64,000 nucleotides of DNA from NCBI GenBank assembly GCA_040389185.1, contig JAZKAJ010000019.1, forward strand, positions 15,523-79,522, read 5' to 3'. The translations under genes were made by a program, and so were the position numbers. Positions within the stretch are counted from its first letter, which is position 1. Each line of letters opens with the position of its first letter. Below the pieces are notes generated by a model. The model made no database searches and was not told the origin of the DNA. It saw only the letters and a list, made by a program, of their open reading frames with translations. Positions 220 through 44,349 of this stretch are shown piece by piece. The DNA comes from Patescibacteria group bacterium (GTDB lineage: Bacteria > Patescibacteriota > Minisyncoccia > Phycocordibacterales > CAIRYW01).

Positions 220-3105
220 CTAAATAACTATATTTATCAAGCGATTTTTGACCACAATCACCCGCTTTATTTGACTCTTCCCCACAAATTCGGCTACTTT
301 TGGATTTTCGAGAGCCAGATCCTTTGCTGCCTCGTCGTCAATATCTCTGTCAATAGAGAGTTCAGCTTTTATTTTTCCGTTCACTTGCACTACGACTGTT
401 ACCTTTTCTGATTTGAGATACTCTTCTTTGTATGTTGGCCACTTCCCTTTAAATATTGTTTGTTTATTTCCAAGATTTTTCCAAATCTCTTCTGTCATAT
501 GGGGGGCAAAGACCGAAAGAAGAACGAGGAATGATTCGTAACTTTTCTTTGTAATCGATTTTGATTCGTAGACTGTGTTTACAAATATCATCATTGTAGA
601 AACTGCGGTGTTAAAAGAAAATGTTTCAATATCCTCACCTACTTTTTTGATTGTTTTATGGAGTGTTACTGTCACTTCCTCATTTTCTTTCTTTGAAATA
701 AAATCCTGCATCGCCCATACTCGCTCGAGAAATCTTCTTGTACCTACAATACCTTTATCATTCCATGCCACCTGCGCTCCGTGAGGTCCAAGAAACATCA
801 TATAAAGTCTTGTGGTATCTGCTCCGTAGATTTTGATTACATCATCAGGGTTCACTACATTACCCCGACTCTTACTCATCTTTTCTCCGTCAGGACCCAA
901 AATAATTCCATGAGGCACTCGTTTTTTGTATGGTTCTTTGACTGACACCAACTTTCGATCATAAAGAAATAGGTTCCAGAATCGAGAATAGAGAAGGTGA
1001 AGTGTTGTATGTTCCATTCCTCCAAAATAAAGATCAACAGGTGACCAATATTTTTGAGCTTTAAGACTTGAGACTTCTTTTTTATTTTTTGCATCCATAT
1101 ATCGAAGCCAGTACCAAGAACTTCCCGCCCACTGTGGCATTGTGTTTGTTTCTCGTTTTGCCTTACCTTTACACTTGGGACATTTTACGTTGACCCATTT
1201 GTCGATTGCAGCGAGCGGAGATTCTCCTGTACCTGTCGGTTCATAGTTTTTGACCTCTGGAAGCTTCACTGGAAGATCTTTGTCGGCTACAGGTACAATT
1301 CCACATTTTGGACAATGTACAAGCGGAATCGGTTCACCCCAATATCGCTGTCGTGAAAATACCCAGTCTCGAAGTTTGTATTTTGTAACTGTCTTTCCGT
1401 TTACAAATTCAACAATTTTATTTTTAGCTTCAGTTGTTGTAAGTCCATTGAACTTATCTGAATTTACAAGGAGACCTTCTTCTGTAATAGGTTTATCTTT
1501 TTCAAATCGCTCAAAGATAAGGTCCATTTCTGCATGGTTGAAGAATGTTTTTTTAAGATCTTGTGCAGGTACCCAAATGAGTGAATGCTTCTCCTCCTCT
1601 TCAGCAGTAATTTCATTTTGAAGAGGTGAGGTAAGCTCACAAAGCATAGTCCATGTATGCGCCACTCTGTTTACATCTTTGTGAGCTGCAAAGAAATGAG
1701 ATTCTACCGGTCCAACAATTGTTCGGACAAATTTCAAATCCTGAAATCCTGTTTCTTCTTTTATTTCTCGAAGAGCTGCTTCTTCTGGAGTCTCACCTTC
1801 TTCGATTCCACCAGTTACAAAAGTAGTCCACGGCTGCTGTTTCCATTTGAGTGTGAGATATGAGTCAGCTTTTGGATCTCGAAGAATTGCAATAACCCCT
1901 TTTCTAAAAGTTATTTCTTTACCAACTCGGTGAGGGTTGCCATTGTCTACTCTCTTTGGAGCAATGACATTTTTAATTTCAAGATGATACTTCTTTGCAA
2001 ACTCAAAATCTCTCTCGTCATGTGCAGGTACTGCCATAATAGCCCCAGTACCATATCCGCCAAGCACATAATCAGCCACGAACATTGGAATTTCTTCACC
2101 GTTTGCAGGATTAATGGCTTTTACACCCTTGAGTTCGACTCCTGTTTTTTCTTTATCGAGTGCACTTCGCTCAATATCTGTCTTTGCTTTAACTTTTTCG
2201 AGATATGCTTTGACCTCTTCTTTGTTTTCCAAAACATCATGATTGTTATCGGTCGCCAAAGTCACCCAGAGATGCTCAGGGGCAAGCACAAGATAAGTCA
2301 CACCAAAAAGTGTATCTGCTCGAGTAGTGAACGCTTTAATATGCGCACCTTTACCGTCCGGACCTTTGTTTAGGTTGGCACTTGGATCTTTTATAAATCT
2401 CAAATCAAAATCGATTTCTGCCCCTTCAGATTTACCGATCCAATTCTCTTGCTGGATTTTCACTGGTTCTGGCCATTCTGGAAGATCTGTGAGTCCTTCG
2501 AGAAGCTTTTCTGCATAGTCTGTGATCTTTAGATACCACTGTCTGAGATTTTTCTTCTCGACTGTCGTTCCACATCGTTCACACTTTCCATCAATCACCT
2601 CTTCGTTCGCAAGACCAGTCTTGTCTTTTGGACACCAATTTACTTCTCCAAACTTTTCGTATGCGAGTCCTGTTTTATAGAATTCGAGAAAAAGTTTCTG
2701 AGTCCATTTGTAATATTCTGGATCAGTAGTATTTATTTCCCGAGACCAGTCGTACCCAGTGCCCCATGAAAGAAGCTGTTTTTTTGCATTTGCTATATTT
2801 TTTGCTGTTGAAACTTTTGGATGGACTTTGTTTTTGATTGCAAAGTTTTCTGCCGGAAGTCCGAATGCATCCCATCCAATTGGATACATTGCATTAAATC
2901 CACGGAGTTTAAAATATTTTGTTGTGACATCTCCAGCAATAAAAGGTCGCATATGACCCATATGAAGTCCTGCTCCAGATGGGAAGGGAAATTCTACCAA
3001 AACCAGCTTTTTCTTTCCGTTATTGTTTTTTACTTCAAACGTTTTCTTTTTTAACCATTCAGCCTGCCATGCTTTTTCTATTTTTTTAGGATCGTAATTT
3101 TTCAT
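220..3105 (-). CDS. leuS: leucyl-tRNA synthetase (961 aa) carrying an embedded Nudix domain (about residues 398-535)
   Basis: HMGH and KMSKS class I signatures are present. The editing region has TTRADT and AVPAHD, and the anticodon-binding C-terminus is present. A Nudix box GGIEEGETPEEAALREIKEETGF lies at nt 1744-1812. Confidence 0.95.
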   Translation of the reverse strand: MKNYDPKKIEKAWQAEWLKKKTFEVKNNNGKKKLVLVEFPFPSGAGLHMGHMRPFIAGDVTTKYFKLRGFNAMYPIGWDAFGLPAENFAIKNKVHPKVSTAKNIANAKKQLLSWGTGYDWSREINTTDPEYYKWTQKLFLEFYKTGLAYEKFGEVNWCPKDKTGLANEEVIDGKCERCGTTVEKKNLRQWYLKITDYAEKLLEGLTDLPEWPEPVKIQQENWIGKSEGAEIDFDLRFIKDPSANLNKGPDGKGAHIKAFTTRADTLFGVTYLVLAPEHLWVTLATDNNHDVLENKEEVKAYLEKVKAKTDIERSALDKEKTGVELKGVKAINPANGEEIPMFVADYVLGGYGTGAIMAVPAHDERDFEFAKKYHLEIKNVIAPKRVDNGNPHRVGKEITFRKGVIAILRDPKADSYLTLKWKQQPWTTFVTGGIEEGETPEEAALREIKEETGFQDLKFVRTIVGPVESHFFAAHKDVNRVAHTWTMLCELTSPLQNEITAEEEEKHSLIWVPAQDLKKTFFNHAEMDLIFERFEKDKPITEEGLLVNSDKFNGLTTTEAKNKIVEFVNGKTVTKYKLRDWVFSRQRYWGEPIPLVHCPKCGIVPVADKDLPVKLPEVKNYEPTGTGESPLAAIDKWVNVKCPKCKGKAKRETNTMPQWAGSSWYWLRYMDAKNKKEVSSLKAQKYWSPVDLYFGGMEHTTLHLLYSRFWNLFLYDRKLVSVKEPYKKRVPHGIILGPDGEKMSKSRGNVVNPDDVIKIYGADTTRLYMMFLGPHGAQVAWNDKGIVGTRRFLERVWAMQDFISKKENEEVTVTLHKTIKKVGEDIETFSFNTAVSTMMIFVNTVYESKSITKKSYESFLVLLSVFAPHMTEEIWKNLGNKQTIFKGKWPTYKEEYLKSEKVTVVVQVNGKIKAELSIDRDIDDEAAKDLALENPKVAEFVGKSQIKRVIVVKNRLINIVI

Positions 3106-3387: not shown

Positions 3388-4299
3388 CTATTTTGTATTA
3401 ATCAGAGGATATTTTTGTGGATCAATGTTTCGCGCAAAACAAGTTCTCTCCGCACCATGCTGCCAACTTTCATCACCATTCATTGCATACACGGCTTTTA
3501 CCTGATTATTATCTGATACAGTTTTGAAATCTGCACATACTTCAAAAGATAACTTTCCAGTTGTTCTGTATTCATACCCTTTCAAAGTCTCTGGATCAAG
3601 TGGAATCATATTGCCTGAAAGAGGATCCACCATATCACTCAAAACTCCTGGCAACACTCCCTTTTGTTGATAGTAATTCACAACCTGATATTGCAGATTG
3701 CTTAGATCATTCACTCTTTGTGAGTCAAAGTTAACATCGCGCTGATGCTTTGGCGAACCAATCATCACAAATCCAATAATAATTGAAAGTAGAACTATGA
3801 TAGATACTGTCGTTGCCCAGACCTTTGATCTCTTTGGATCTTCGTTGAAGTATCCTTTAAGATCCTTGAGGCAATATGTAAATATTGCGCCCGCGACCAC
3901 GAATACAGAAAGCACCTTGAGAAGAAATCCTGTTGTAAAGTCGAGTCCCGCAAGGAATGAATTAATAAGAACGATCGCATCACCTGCAATTGTTGCCCCA
4001 GTTAAAGCAAGTGTGAAATAAATAATCCACTTTCGAAGCTTACCTTCTTTGAATTCAATATTTTCTGTAATGAAATTTCGATATACTCGACTAAGCCAGA
4101 TAAAGAGCGGAAATACGACAATGAGTGTTGAGATGGAGAATCTAATGGCAGAAGTATCTGGGTAATAGTCTAATACTTGAGGAAATACATTGTTGATAAC
4201 AGAGAAAAGAAATACCAAGAAACTAATCGCAGAGATATAGAGTGTTGCGAAGATGCCGATTTGAATAAAGAAATTCTTTGGGGCTTGTGAGGACTGCAT
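3388..4299 (-). CDS. multi-pass membrane protein with a C-terminal soluble domain (DUF5671-like family common in Patescibacteria; assignment by recall)
   Basis: 303-aa ORF with four or more hydrophobic helices and then a hydrophilic tail. Confidence 0.6.
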   Translation of the reverse strand: MQSSQAPKNFFIQIGIFATLYISAISFLVFLFSVINNVFPQVLDYYPDTSAIRFSISTLIVVFPLFIWLSRVYRNFITENIEFKEGKLRKWIIYFTLALTGATIAGDAIVLINSFLAGLDFTTGFLLKVLSVFVVAGAIFTYCLKDLKGYFNEDPKRSKVWATTVSIIVLLSIIIGFVMIGSPKHQRDVNFDSQRVNDLSNLQYQVVNYYQQKGVLPGVLSDMVDPLSGNMIPLDPETLKGYEYRTTGKLSFEVCADFKTVSDNNQVKAVYAMNGDESWQHGAERTCFARNIDPQKYPLINTK

Positions 4300-4487: not shown

Positions 4488-4880
4488 TTATGAATTTTGA
4501 CGCAATGCAATTTTCAAAACAGGAATTATACCTTTTTGATGAAATCCCAATTCAAGTTTTTCAATCTCATCTATTGTCATCCATTGCATTGCTAGACCCT
4601 CATTAAGTTTTGGCTCTTGAGTTGAATTAATTTTACAAACATAAACTTTATCAGCTCCATCATTATAATCCATCAGATAATTACATTGATCGAGTTTTAA
4701 ATTCAAATCATATTCTTCTTTAATTTCTCTTAGCAGAGTTGTTTCATAATCTTCACCTTCTTCAGTTTCTCCGCCTGGCAAACACCACATAAACGGAAAT
4801 CGTTTACAGTTCCCATCTCGCTGCTGCATAAGAATCTTTTTATCACGAACCAAAGCAAAGATTACTCCAGTTTTTTGCAT
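4488..4880 (-). CDS. Nudix hydrolase (MutT-like)
   Basis: Nudix box GGETEEGEDYETTLLREIKEEYDL. Confidence 0.8.
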   Translation of the reverse strand: MQKTGVIFALVRDKKILMQQRDGNCKRFPFMWCLPGGETEEGEDYETTLLREIKEEYDLNLKLDQCNYLMDYNDGADKVYVCKINSTQEPKLNEGLAMQWMTIDEIEKLELGFHQKGIIPVLKIALRQNS

Positions 4881-4883
4881 ATT

Positions 4884-5981
4884 TTATACTCTAAATTCCA
4901 TCACATCCCCGTCCTTCACTATATATTCCTTCCCTTCTGTTCGGAGCCACCCTTTTTCTCGAGCATTACCGAAGCTTCCCGCTTCGAGTAGTTTGTTCCA
5001 CTCGATTACTTCTGCTCGAATGAATTTATCTTTAAAGTCGTTGTGAATTGCGGTTCCTGCAATAGGTGCTGTTGAATTCTTGGCGATAGTCCATGCCCGC
5101 GTCTCTACTTCTCCTGTCGTAAAGAATGTCTCAAGTCCCAAAAGGTCGTAACCTTTTTTAATGAGTGTATTGATACCGTCATCATTTGATCCGAGTTCAC
5201 TTCGAAACATTGCTTTTTCTTCTCCTTCGAAATCCTTGAGTTCATGCTCAACACCTGCATCCACGATACAATATCCTGCCTTTGAAGTTTTAATAAAATC
5301 CATGAGTTTGTTCCATCGCTCATCTTTCATTTCATCAAGGTTTGTTCCACCTGCTTTTTTGTTGAGTACATACATGATCGGTTTGAGTGTAAGAAGCGCC
5401 AAACTTTTGAGTGAGAATCTTTCTTCATCTGTAAGTTCTGCGTCGGTTGCGAGCTGACCATTTGCAAGAACCTTCAACACCTTGTCGAGAGTTTCTTTGA
5501 CTTTAATTGCTTCTTTGTCTCCTCGCTTCACATCCTTTTCAATAGTTCCGATTCTTTTTGATACTGTTTCATGATCTGCGAGCACGAGTTCGAGATTGAT
5601 GACGCCGATATCTGATACAGGATCGATCTTGCCATCCACGTGGATCACATTACCGTCTTCAAAGATTCTAACAACTTCACAAATCGCATCCACCTCTCGA
5701 ATATGAGAGAGGAACTTGTTACCAAGACCTTCCCCTTCTGATGCACCTTTAACGAGTCCTGCAATATCTACAAATTCTACGATTGCCGGAACTGTTTTTT
5801 GGGTTTTTGAAAATGCTGCGAGTTTGTAGAGTCGTTCATCAGGCACCGGTACAACACCTACAGATGGATCTATAGTACAGAAAGGATAATTCTCGGCAGG
5901 CACAGACTTTTTAGTGAGTGCATTAAAGAGTGTTGATTTACCGACGTTTGGGAGACCTACGATTCCAATTGAAATTTGCAT
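4884..5981 (-). CDS. ychF: ribosome-binding ATPase YchF (Obg-family GTPase with a TGS domain)
   Basis: [16 protein letters not shown]-loop and a C-terminal TGS-like segment; 365 aa. Confidence 0.9.
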
Positions 5982-44227: not shown

Positions 44228-44279
44228 CCACATAAATACAAAAACTCCCCAACTAAGGGGAGTTTTTGTATTTATGTGG
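44228..44279 (-). terminator. 23-bp perfect hairpin immediately 3' of tRNA-Ala (ccacataaatacaaaaactcccc / ggggagtttttgtatttatgtgg)
   Basis: Read directly. Overlaps the last 3 nt of the tRNA. Confidence 0.7.
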
Positions 44280-44349
44280 ACCCTACCAGATTCGAACTGG
44301 TGACCTCCTCATTGCAAATGAGGCGCTCTACCAACTAAGCTAAGGGCCC
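44277..44349 (-). tRNA. tRNA-Ala (anticodon UGC); G3:U70 present; CCA not encoded
   Basis: Cloverleaf folded by hand: GGGCCCT acceptor, anticodon loop TTTGCAA, T-arm CCAGTTCGAATCTGG; 73 nt. Confidence 0.85.

Follow-up and report, generated by a model that had tools for sequence, protein, structure and literature searches.

A predicted Nudix hydrolase domain nested in the CP1 editing domain of leucyl-tRNA synthetase in Patescibacteria

Why should an essential enzyme of translation carry a second enzyme fold inside its own editing domain? Few enzymes are as conserved as the aminoacyl-tRNA synthetases, and in bacteria extra nested catalytic domains are rare in them. The question is raised by the leuS gene of a Patescibacteria group bacterium, which lies in a 64,000-nucleotide stretch of contig JAZKAJ010000019.1 (assembly GCA_040389185.1), referred to here as the window. 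The gene encodes a leucyl-tRNA synthetase (LeuRS) of 961 amino acids, in which a domain of the Nudix hydrolase family takes the place of a surface loop in the CP1 editing domain. In our best reading the protein is bifunctional, a canonical LeuRS joined to a predicted Nudix pyrophosphohydrolase.

The synthetase and its nested domain

The product of leuS scored 973.7 bits against the NCBIfam equivalog model TIGR00396 (leuS_bact; cut-off 548.4), with the match split in two around the insert. Pfam searches identified the editing domain PF13603 (194 bits), tRNA-synt_1_2, tRNA-synt_1 (PF00133) and Anticodon_1 (PF08264). When the protein was aligned with the LeuRS of Thermus thermophilus (1h3n; E 1e-202), residues 1-382 corresponded to T. 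thermophilus residues 1-363, residues 539-740 to 376-582, and the C-terminal part to 637-876. The following features were located along the gene:

220-3105, minus strand: leuS gene, 961 amino acids, one uninterrupted open reading frame in the list of open reading frames; stop codon at 220-222
1960-3105, minus strand: residues 1-382, N-terminal Rossmann half, first zinc module and first part of the CP1 editing domain (alignment to T. thermophilus 1-363)
2953-2964, minus strand: HMGH motif, residues 48-51 (translation)
2311-2331, minus strand: FTTRADT, the T-rich editing motif (translation)
2008-2052, minus strand: GTGAIMAVPAHDERD, CP1 editing motif (translation)
1492-1959, minus strand: nested Nudix domain, residues 383-538 (156 amino acids), which replaces a 12-residue CP1 loop, here called site A (T. 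thermophilus alignment)
1744-1812, minus strand: Nudix box GGIEEGETPEEAALREIKEETGF, residues 432-454, the catalytic loop-helix-loop, a perfect fit to GX5EX7REUXEEXGU (translation)
223-1491, minus strand: residues 539-961, last CP1 strand and helix, second Rossmann half with zinc knuckles, anticodon-binding and C-terminal domains (T. thermophilus alignment, PF00133, PF08264)
868-882, minus strand: KMSKS motif, residues 742-746 (translation)

The host enzyme is otherwise intact in its synthetic and editing motifs. The editing residues T260, T261, R262, D264, T265, D363 and D366 were kept in 79-81 of the 81 homologs compared, with or without an insert. With the bacterial LeuRSs of T. thermophilus (1H3N/2BYT) and Escherichia coli (3ZGZ/4AQ7) the protein shares full-length collinear homology, the HIGH and KMSKS motifs, a CP1 editing domain with its T-rich and GTG/Asp motifs, and the anticodon-binding and C-terminal domains. 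It differs from the T. thermophilus enzyme by the 156-residue enzyme domain that stands in place of the 12-residue CP1 loop, and by the absence of the leucine-specific domain (about residues 583-636 in T. thermophilus), which precedes KMSKS in E. coli and T. thermophilus and is missing here, as residues 740-742 span T. thermophilus 582-637. The leucine-specific domain is not universal in bacterial LeuRS, and LeuRS relatives of the window protein likewise do without it, having an equally short spacing between the RDW and KMSKS motifs (868-900, minus strand, in the window). We regard the protein as the organism's ordinary LeuRS and predict it to be functional.

Site A lies within the CP1 editing domain, on a surface loop flanked by the strands 'KNVI' and 'GLLVNS'. 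The Pfam NUDIX model PF00293 matched residues 400-520 with 61.9 bits (gathering score 21.1, E 8e-17), nested between the tRNA-synt_1_2 and tRNA-synt_1 stretches, and the insert searched alone reached 66.4 bits. An AlphaFold2 model of the full-length protein, built with 81 homologs, had a mean predicted local distance difference test (pLDDT) score of 88.6 and a predicted template modelling (pTM) score of 0.77; over residues 381-540, both junctions included, every 10-residue block scored 88-96. The Nudix part of this model contains the expected strands and a helix at residues 440-452 bearing the REx2EE residues, and modelling of the insert alone gave a pLDDT of 94.4 and a pTM of 0.87. In these models the insert is an alpha/beta/alpha Nudix fold with its catalytic helix, forming a discrete lobe, and the fold accounts for the whole insert.

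Conservation of the domain was evaluated across 70 insert-bearing LeuRSs, whose inserts share an average pairwise identity of only 41.5%. Within the Nudix box, G432, E447 and G453 were invariant, E450 and E451 were conserved in 99% and E438 and R446 in 93%. Outside the box, R401, W426, K476, N479, R480, E503 and W511 were conserved in 94-100% and constitute a clade-specific set. The strict Nudix box was retained in about 90% of insert-bearing LeuRS clusters; a minority sub-type has Gln in place of E438 and the Arg displaced by one position, with the Glu-Glu pair retained. These patterns show strong purifying selection on both the metal-binding and catalytic residues of the Nudix domain and the residues particular to its clade. 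Because the catalytic residues are conserved at 93-100%, pyrophosphohydrolase activity is predicted, and we infer that the domain is catalytically competent and apparently active.

A first-pass annotation of the locus, made by a model from the letters and their open reading frames alone, had described a 961-residue LeuRS read in one continuous frame (220-3105, minus strand) and interrupted by a canonical Nudix domain. The open reading frame and TIGR00396 bear this out, the translation places the Nudix box exactly at nucleotides 1744-1812, and the HMGH, KMSKS and editing motifs, which had been reported as intact, are all present. That annotation had further expected a PF00293 match nested within tRNA-synt_1 and had proposed structure prediction as a check for a discrete Nudix lobe, and both the Pfam search and AlphaFold2 agree with it. 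Its claim of a true in-frame insertion, and not a fusion artefact, is upheld by about 100 independent clusters with the same architecture. It was correct that the segment is inserted but not in the extent and place of the insertion, which comprises about 156 and not about 135 residues and lies inside CP1, not in a linker after it.

Distribution and further insertion loops

The survey of relatives covered the 120 best LeuRS clusters (49-82% identity) from NCBI, JGI, ENA and Logan assemblies. PF00293 was found in about 100 of the 120, under the labels Taylorbacteria, Paceibacterota, Parcubacteria, Minisyncoccota and similar, and the spacing between the AHD and RDW motifs was 213-227 residues in nearly all insert carriers (mostly 217-220) compared with 41-100 residues in insert-less relatives. 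With the insert alone as query, phmmer was run exhaustively over 1.84 billion cluster representatives and returned 683 proteins at E<=1e-3, of which 207 were at E<=1e-10. Among the best 150 matches, 83 carried LeuS motifs, 13 more were CP1-containing proteins or fragments (96 of 150 together) and 35 were short stand-alone Nudix proteins; the Nudix clade is small and mostly resident in LeuRS. When one genome per GTDB species was scanned, at least 215 genomes encoded a relative, and at roughly 68-70 of the 80 loci inspected the match lay inside a LeuS-type open reading frame. The carriers bear the labels Taylor-, Kaiser-, Adler-, Buchanan-, Magasanik-, Berkel-, Gracili- and Peribacteria. Judged by these sequences, the combination of LeuRS and Nudix domain is widespread in Patescibacteria.

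Full-length LeuRSs with a Nudix domain were also encoded by low-GC (27-34% guanine and cytosine) metagenome-assembled genomes from the gut labelled Bacilli, Bacillales, Clostridium or Erysipelotrichaceae (loci L047, L051, L052, L065, L069, L071, L075, L076 and L083). The core identity of these Bacilli- or Clostridia-labelled proteins to the window protein, 42-52%, overlaps the range of the candidate phyla radiation, and either mislabelling or transfer of the gene may account for them. Several of the LeuRSs surveyed are named by NCBI only as 'class I tRNA ligase family protein', and one as 'alpha/beta fold hydrolase' (P0013, P0016, P0030, P0031, P0059, P0060 and P0070). The nested domains may be the cause of these vague names, with which automated reconstructions could score LeuRS as missing in these genomes.

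In longer LeuRS relatives, of 1106-1558 residues, two more loops of fixed position bear extra domains. The first CP1 strand 'NWIGKSEGAEIDF' is immediately followed by site B, which holds an additional 145 to 538 residues in carriers such as P0028, P0067 and P0116. These residues form an alpha/beta-hydrolase (Ser_hydrolase/Abhydrolase, PF06821/PF00561), a Ham1-family domain (PF01725), or one or two further Nudix domains of the insert's clade. Site C is found between the second 'CPxC' knuckle, which it adjoins, and 'AKRETNTMPQW'; carriers such as P0021, P0041, P0045, P0056 and P0064 hold an additional HAD_2 domain (PF13419) of about 210 residues there. One of them, P0056, has three Nudix domains of the insert's clade together with the HAD domain, while some relatives have a HAD but no Nudix domain; the number of Nudix copies per LeuRS ranges from 0 to 3. 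In the window, site B is represented by a short loop:

2341-2409, minus strand: first CP1 hairpin loop 'FDLRFIKDPSANLNKGPDGKGAH', residues 233-255 (23 residues)

Cassette behaviour and free-standing relatives

The closest relative of the window protein, P0014 (Candidatus Taylorbacteria), is 91% identical to it in the LeuRS core and 39% in the insert, and the inserts of P0014, P0015, P0017 and P0019 are mutually 82-91% identical. Over 2415 pairs, core identity and insert identity were weakly correlated (r = 0.32). At the DNA level the window gene is 80-93% identical to the P0014 gene along most of its length and 48-61% identical across one block with sharp edges on both sides:

1411-1974, minus strand: recombined block, residues about 378-565, comprising the Nudix domain and the next CP1 strand and helix, divergent from the P0014 ortholog

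In the protein alignment, near-identity persists until '...KNVIAP', the block is divergent throughout, and the two sequences re-converge near '...VTKYKLRDW'. A second, smaller dip in DNA identity at residues 221-270 coincides with site B, whose loop at residues 233-255 is 64-66% identical to the P0014 ortholog compared with 80-93% elsewhere. Two further close relatives, P0026 and P0037 (locus L084, 6001-8355), which are the nearest orthologs without an insert, have neither the Nudix block nor the next CP1 strand 'GLLVNSDKFNGL', and their AHD-to-RDW spacing is 41 residues, against 58-100 in other insert-less relatives. The gene orders around leuS were compared:

Window: YchF (4884-5981), small Nudix gene (4488-4880), DUF5671 gene (3388-4299), leuS
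P0014 locus: YchF, DUF5671, leuS, sigma70-like gene, DUF8128, YceG, MnmA
P0026 locus: DUF5671, leuS, sigma70-like gene, DUF8128, YceG, MnmA

The three leuS genes are alleles of one orthologous gene, in which the insert is present, swapped or absent. Among close orthologs, the Nudix module is replaced, lost and duplicated in the manner of a cassette.

Members of the clade also occur outside LeuRS, in two forms. The first is a family of free-standing proteins of about 250-310 residues that consist of a reduced CP1 domain with the Nudix domain nested at the same loop (P0001, P0002, P0005, P0007, P0176, P0187, P0213, P0258 and P0272, and loci L043 and L068, the latter two labelled Clostridia or Clostridiales). 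P0005 (L001, 8001-8831) is an independent gene on a 61-kb contig in a dcw-type neighbourhood with RsmH, DivIC, PASTA-PBPs, FtsW, MraY and DUF285. The family has kept the motifs of the CP1 beta-core and a perfect Nudix box; its T-rich motif has lost the threonines and its editing pocket the first Asp. Since the CP1 beta-core motifs are kept and the sequence of P0187 is intermediate between LeuRS and the reduced CP1 forms, the comparison suggests that these proteins were derived from LeuRS. The second form comprises stand-alone clade members of about 160 residues. At one locus (L039, 3358-4441, plus strand) such a gene shares 20 nucleotides with the 3' end of pth, which encodes peptidyl-tRNA hydrolase, with hisS, def and fmt across a divergent intergenic region from the pth-Nudix pair; at another (L055) it comes after genes for a HAD protein and a low-molecular-weight phosphatase. 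A correspondence between this free HAD protein and the HAD domain nested in LeuRS was considered and rejected, the two sharing 24% identity over 112 residues with no specific link.

A full-text literature search, with most subscription journals outside its coverage, returned no account of any aminoacyl-tRNA synthetase, LeuRS included, that carries a Nudix domain or another hydrolase cassette, in line with the first-pass annotation, which knew of none. The nested architecture can already be seen in Pfam annotations precomputed for public proteins. The two component families are familiar ones. More surprising are the dynamics of the cassette, the platform with its three sites and the mini-CP1-Nudix proteins as excised forms. 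The NCBIfam model NF040702, 'isoleucine--tRNA ligase, N-acetyltransferase domain-containing', which was among the NCBIfam matches and is likened here by its name only, also combines a class I synthetase with the domain of a small-molecule enzyme; it differs in having a GNAT partner in an IleRS host, as opposed to a Nudix domain in LeuRS. Archaeal and eukaryal LeuRSs have lineage-specific CP1 insertions, such as the 'I4ae' cap over the editing pocket, which are short structural elements and not enzyme folds. They likewise place extra polypeptide in CP1 surface loops.

In much of the Patescibacteria, a single essential enzyme is repeatedly host to between one and five extra hydrolases, placed at three loops of fixed position. 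This provides a natural system for studying the tolerance to domain insertion of an essential multi-state enzyme whose CP1 must swivel during catalysis, the possible physical coupling of translation with nucleotide-pool or alarmone hygiene in ultra-small cells, and the recombinational exchange of cassettes internal to a protein.

Possible roles of the Nudix module

To which reaction, then, would the Nudix domain be devoted? RppH, MutT, NudB, NudE and other NCBIfam equivalog models scored 20-31 bits, with cut-offs of 98-259 bits: 26-31 bits for the RppH models (cut-offs 116-259), 27 bits for the MutT model NF008044 (cut-off 148) and 26.6 bits for TIGR00586 (cut-off 97.9). The best PDB match in profile searches was a diadenosine tetraphosphate (Ap4A) hydrolase (1f3y, positions 31-76), and of this enzyme and of NudB only the Nudix-box region was covered. 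No match to a dedicated model for diadenosine polyphosphate (ApnA) hydrolases was found among the models searched, and the PADLOC defence models gave one weak generic Nudix match (26 bits). The ApnA hydrolases of the Nudix superfamily have an aromatic residue about 17 positions downstream of the box. Among the 70 insert-bearing LeuRSs, position +17 is always Phe, Tyr or Trp and position +18 is Phe or Tyr in 68; the residue is usually Phe at both positions. The likeness to Rv2985/MutT1 (9CXX) and to the Ap4A/Ap6A hydrolases (1F3Y, 1VC8 and 1KT9) is generic to the superfamily, with no subfamily-specific motif shown and with other domain partners. The free-standing Nudix proteins 2AZW (Enterococcus faecalis) and 3SMD (Bacillus thuringiensis), 16-24% identical to the insert, are of unknown function and biochemically uncharacterised, and they therefore carry no substrate information for it.

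The explanation that we favour, to which we give about an even chance, is that the Nudix domain is a largely autonomous small-molecule nucleotide pyrophosphohydrolase and that LeuRS serves as a permissive, constitutively expressed scaffold. Its substrates would likely be non-canonical or damaged nucleotides, or dinucleoside polyphosphates, and in these gene-poor genomes the same scaffold would also carry other house-cleaning hydrolases (Ham1/ITPase-like, HAD, alpha/beta-hydrolase and more Nudix domains) at its two other loops. The sharing of the LeuRS scaffold by unrelated house-cleaning hydrolase families argues for this explanation, as do the variation of the Nudix copy number from 0 to 3, the swapping and loss of the cassette among close orthologs, the existence of free-standing clade members and the acidity of the domain, whose net charge has a median of -3.5 across homologs and is -7 in the window. 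The hypothesis is directly testable with recombinant protein.

Several observations pull the other way. The Nudix clade is found predominantly inside LeuRS, always in CP1 loops. The unit of CP1 and Nudix domain persists as an independent gene, and such separate genes are conserved over a diverged family in which the two domains travel together. Because a purely autonomous hitch-hiker should have shed its CP1 remnant, it is likely that the Nudix domain depends structurally or functionally on the CP1 frame to some degree. Lastly, the translational coupling of a stand-alone clade member to pth at locus L039, a single case, hints at a translation-linked role.

The clade's residence in CP1 loops and the persistence of the CP1-Nudix unit also lend weight to a second explanation, which we regard as possible but doubtful, namely that the Nudix domain is chemically coupled to LeuRS and clears by-products or inhibitors made or bound there, with CP1 lending part of the binding site. 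Candidate substrates would be Ap3A or Ap4A formed from Leu-AMP and ATP or ADP, mis-activated aminoacyl-adenylates, and antibiotics that mimic aminoacyl-adenylates, and the rapid turnover of the cassette would reflect an arms race or a shifting substrate spectrum. Swapping and loss of this kind are what accessory or resistance functions typically show, and the pLDDT of 88-96 across the domain and its junctions suggests a rigid connection in the model. The conserved aromatic residues at +17 and +18 and the Ap4A hydrolase as best PDB match, though confined to the box region, are also consistent with such coupling. However, nothing obvious links the Ham1, HAD and alpha/beta-hydrolase inserts to the chemistry of LeuRS, close orthologs manage with no Nudix domain, and a conserved composite pocket is not evident, given that the T-rich threonines and the first editing Asp have been lost from the mini-CP1 proteins. 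Moreover, aminoacyl-adenylates are acyl-phosphate anhydrides and not the nucleoside-diphosphate-X compounds that are typical Nudix substrates, a matter of established chemistry, which makes the in-cis proofreading of aminoacyl-adenylates suggested in the first-pass annotation the chemically weakest part of its functional proposal. That proposal as a whole, which also named clearance of diadenosine polyphosphates as alarmones, is possible but unsupported.

A broader version, which we hold to be rather unlikely, would make CP1 and the Nudix domain a functional unit, serving a reaction in quality control or defence that has yet to be described. The ligand, bound by CP1 and cleaved by the Nudix domain, would contain adenosine: a dinucleoside polyphosphate, an antibiotic that mimics an aminoacyl-adenylate, or a tRNA end that is capped or triphosphorylated. 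LeuRS would be a platform with three fixed docking loops, at which Nudix, Ham1, HAD and alpha/beta-hydrolase cassettes would be exchanged by recombination under fluctuating selection, and the CP1-Nudix unit would have been exported to Clostridia-labelled bacteria as the free-standing mini-CP1-Nudix enzyme.

It is quite improbable, in our view, that the domain acts on RNA ends in the manner of RppH or NudC, removing a 5' triphosphate or a cap (NAD or Np4N) from tRNA-Leu or another RNA while CP1 holds the acceptor end. The RppH scores are far under the family cut-offs of 116-259 bits, no RNA-specific features were identified in the insert, and its acidity does not suggest a role in RNA binding; we know of no evidence for capped or triphosphorylated tRNAs in these organisms. 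We give very little credence to a module without catalytic function that would act structurally or in regulation, for example as a lobe for tRNA binding or protein interaction to compensate for the missing leucine-specific domain, with the Nudix box kept for folding. E447, E450 and E451 are conserved at 99-100% against an average domain identity of about 41%, the domain is acidic, and relatives without the Nudix domain have the same RDW-to-KMSKS spacing and are also without the leucine-specific domain.

It can practically be dismissed that the feature is an artefact, whether a chimeric assembly, a decaying insertion, or leuS fused by a frameshift to a Nudix gene nearby; the sole related circumstance found is a small Nudix gene of its own at 4488-4880, 1.4 kb from leuS. 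The architecture recurs with the same junctions in about 100 homologous clusters from many independent assemblies, and the frame is continuous, the window protein is 100% identical to an NCBI protein from a Patescibacteria metagenome-assembled genome (P0013, on an 82.6-kb contig), that neighbouring gene resembles the insert in the Nudix box only, pLDDT is high at both junctions and the GC content across the insert (0.40-0.41) equals that of the flanks.

A mobile genetic insertion, whether intein or transposon-borne, was likewise considered and rejected, since inspection of the junctions and base composition for signs of such elements yielded no meaningful repeats, only short chance ones, and no compositional anomaly relative to the flanks, and the Nudix fold leaves no part of the insert unaccounted for. 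The small Nudix gene (4488-4880, minus strand; 130 amino acids; PF00293, 57.7 bits) stands between ychF and the DUF5671 gene and is absent from the P0014 locus, where ychF is directly followed by DUF5671; it was rejected as a donor or paralog of the insert, to which it has only box-level similarity (25.8 bits). The sole tRNA gene in the 64-kb window, and its sole Rfam match at the gathering threshold, is a tRNA-Ala(TGC) at 44276-44349 on the minus strand.

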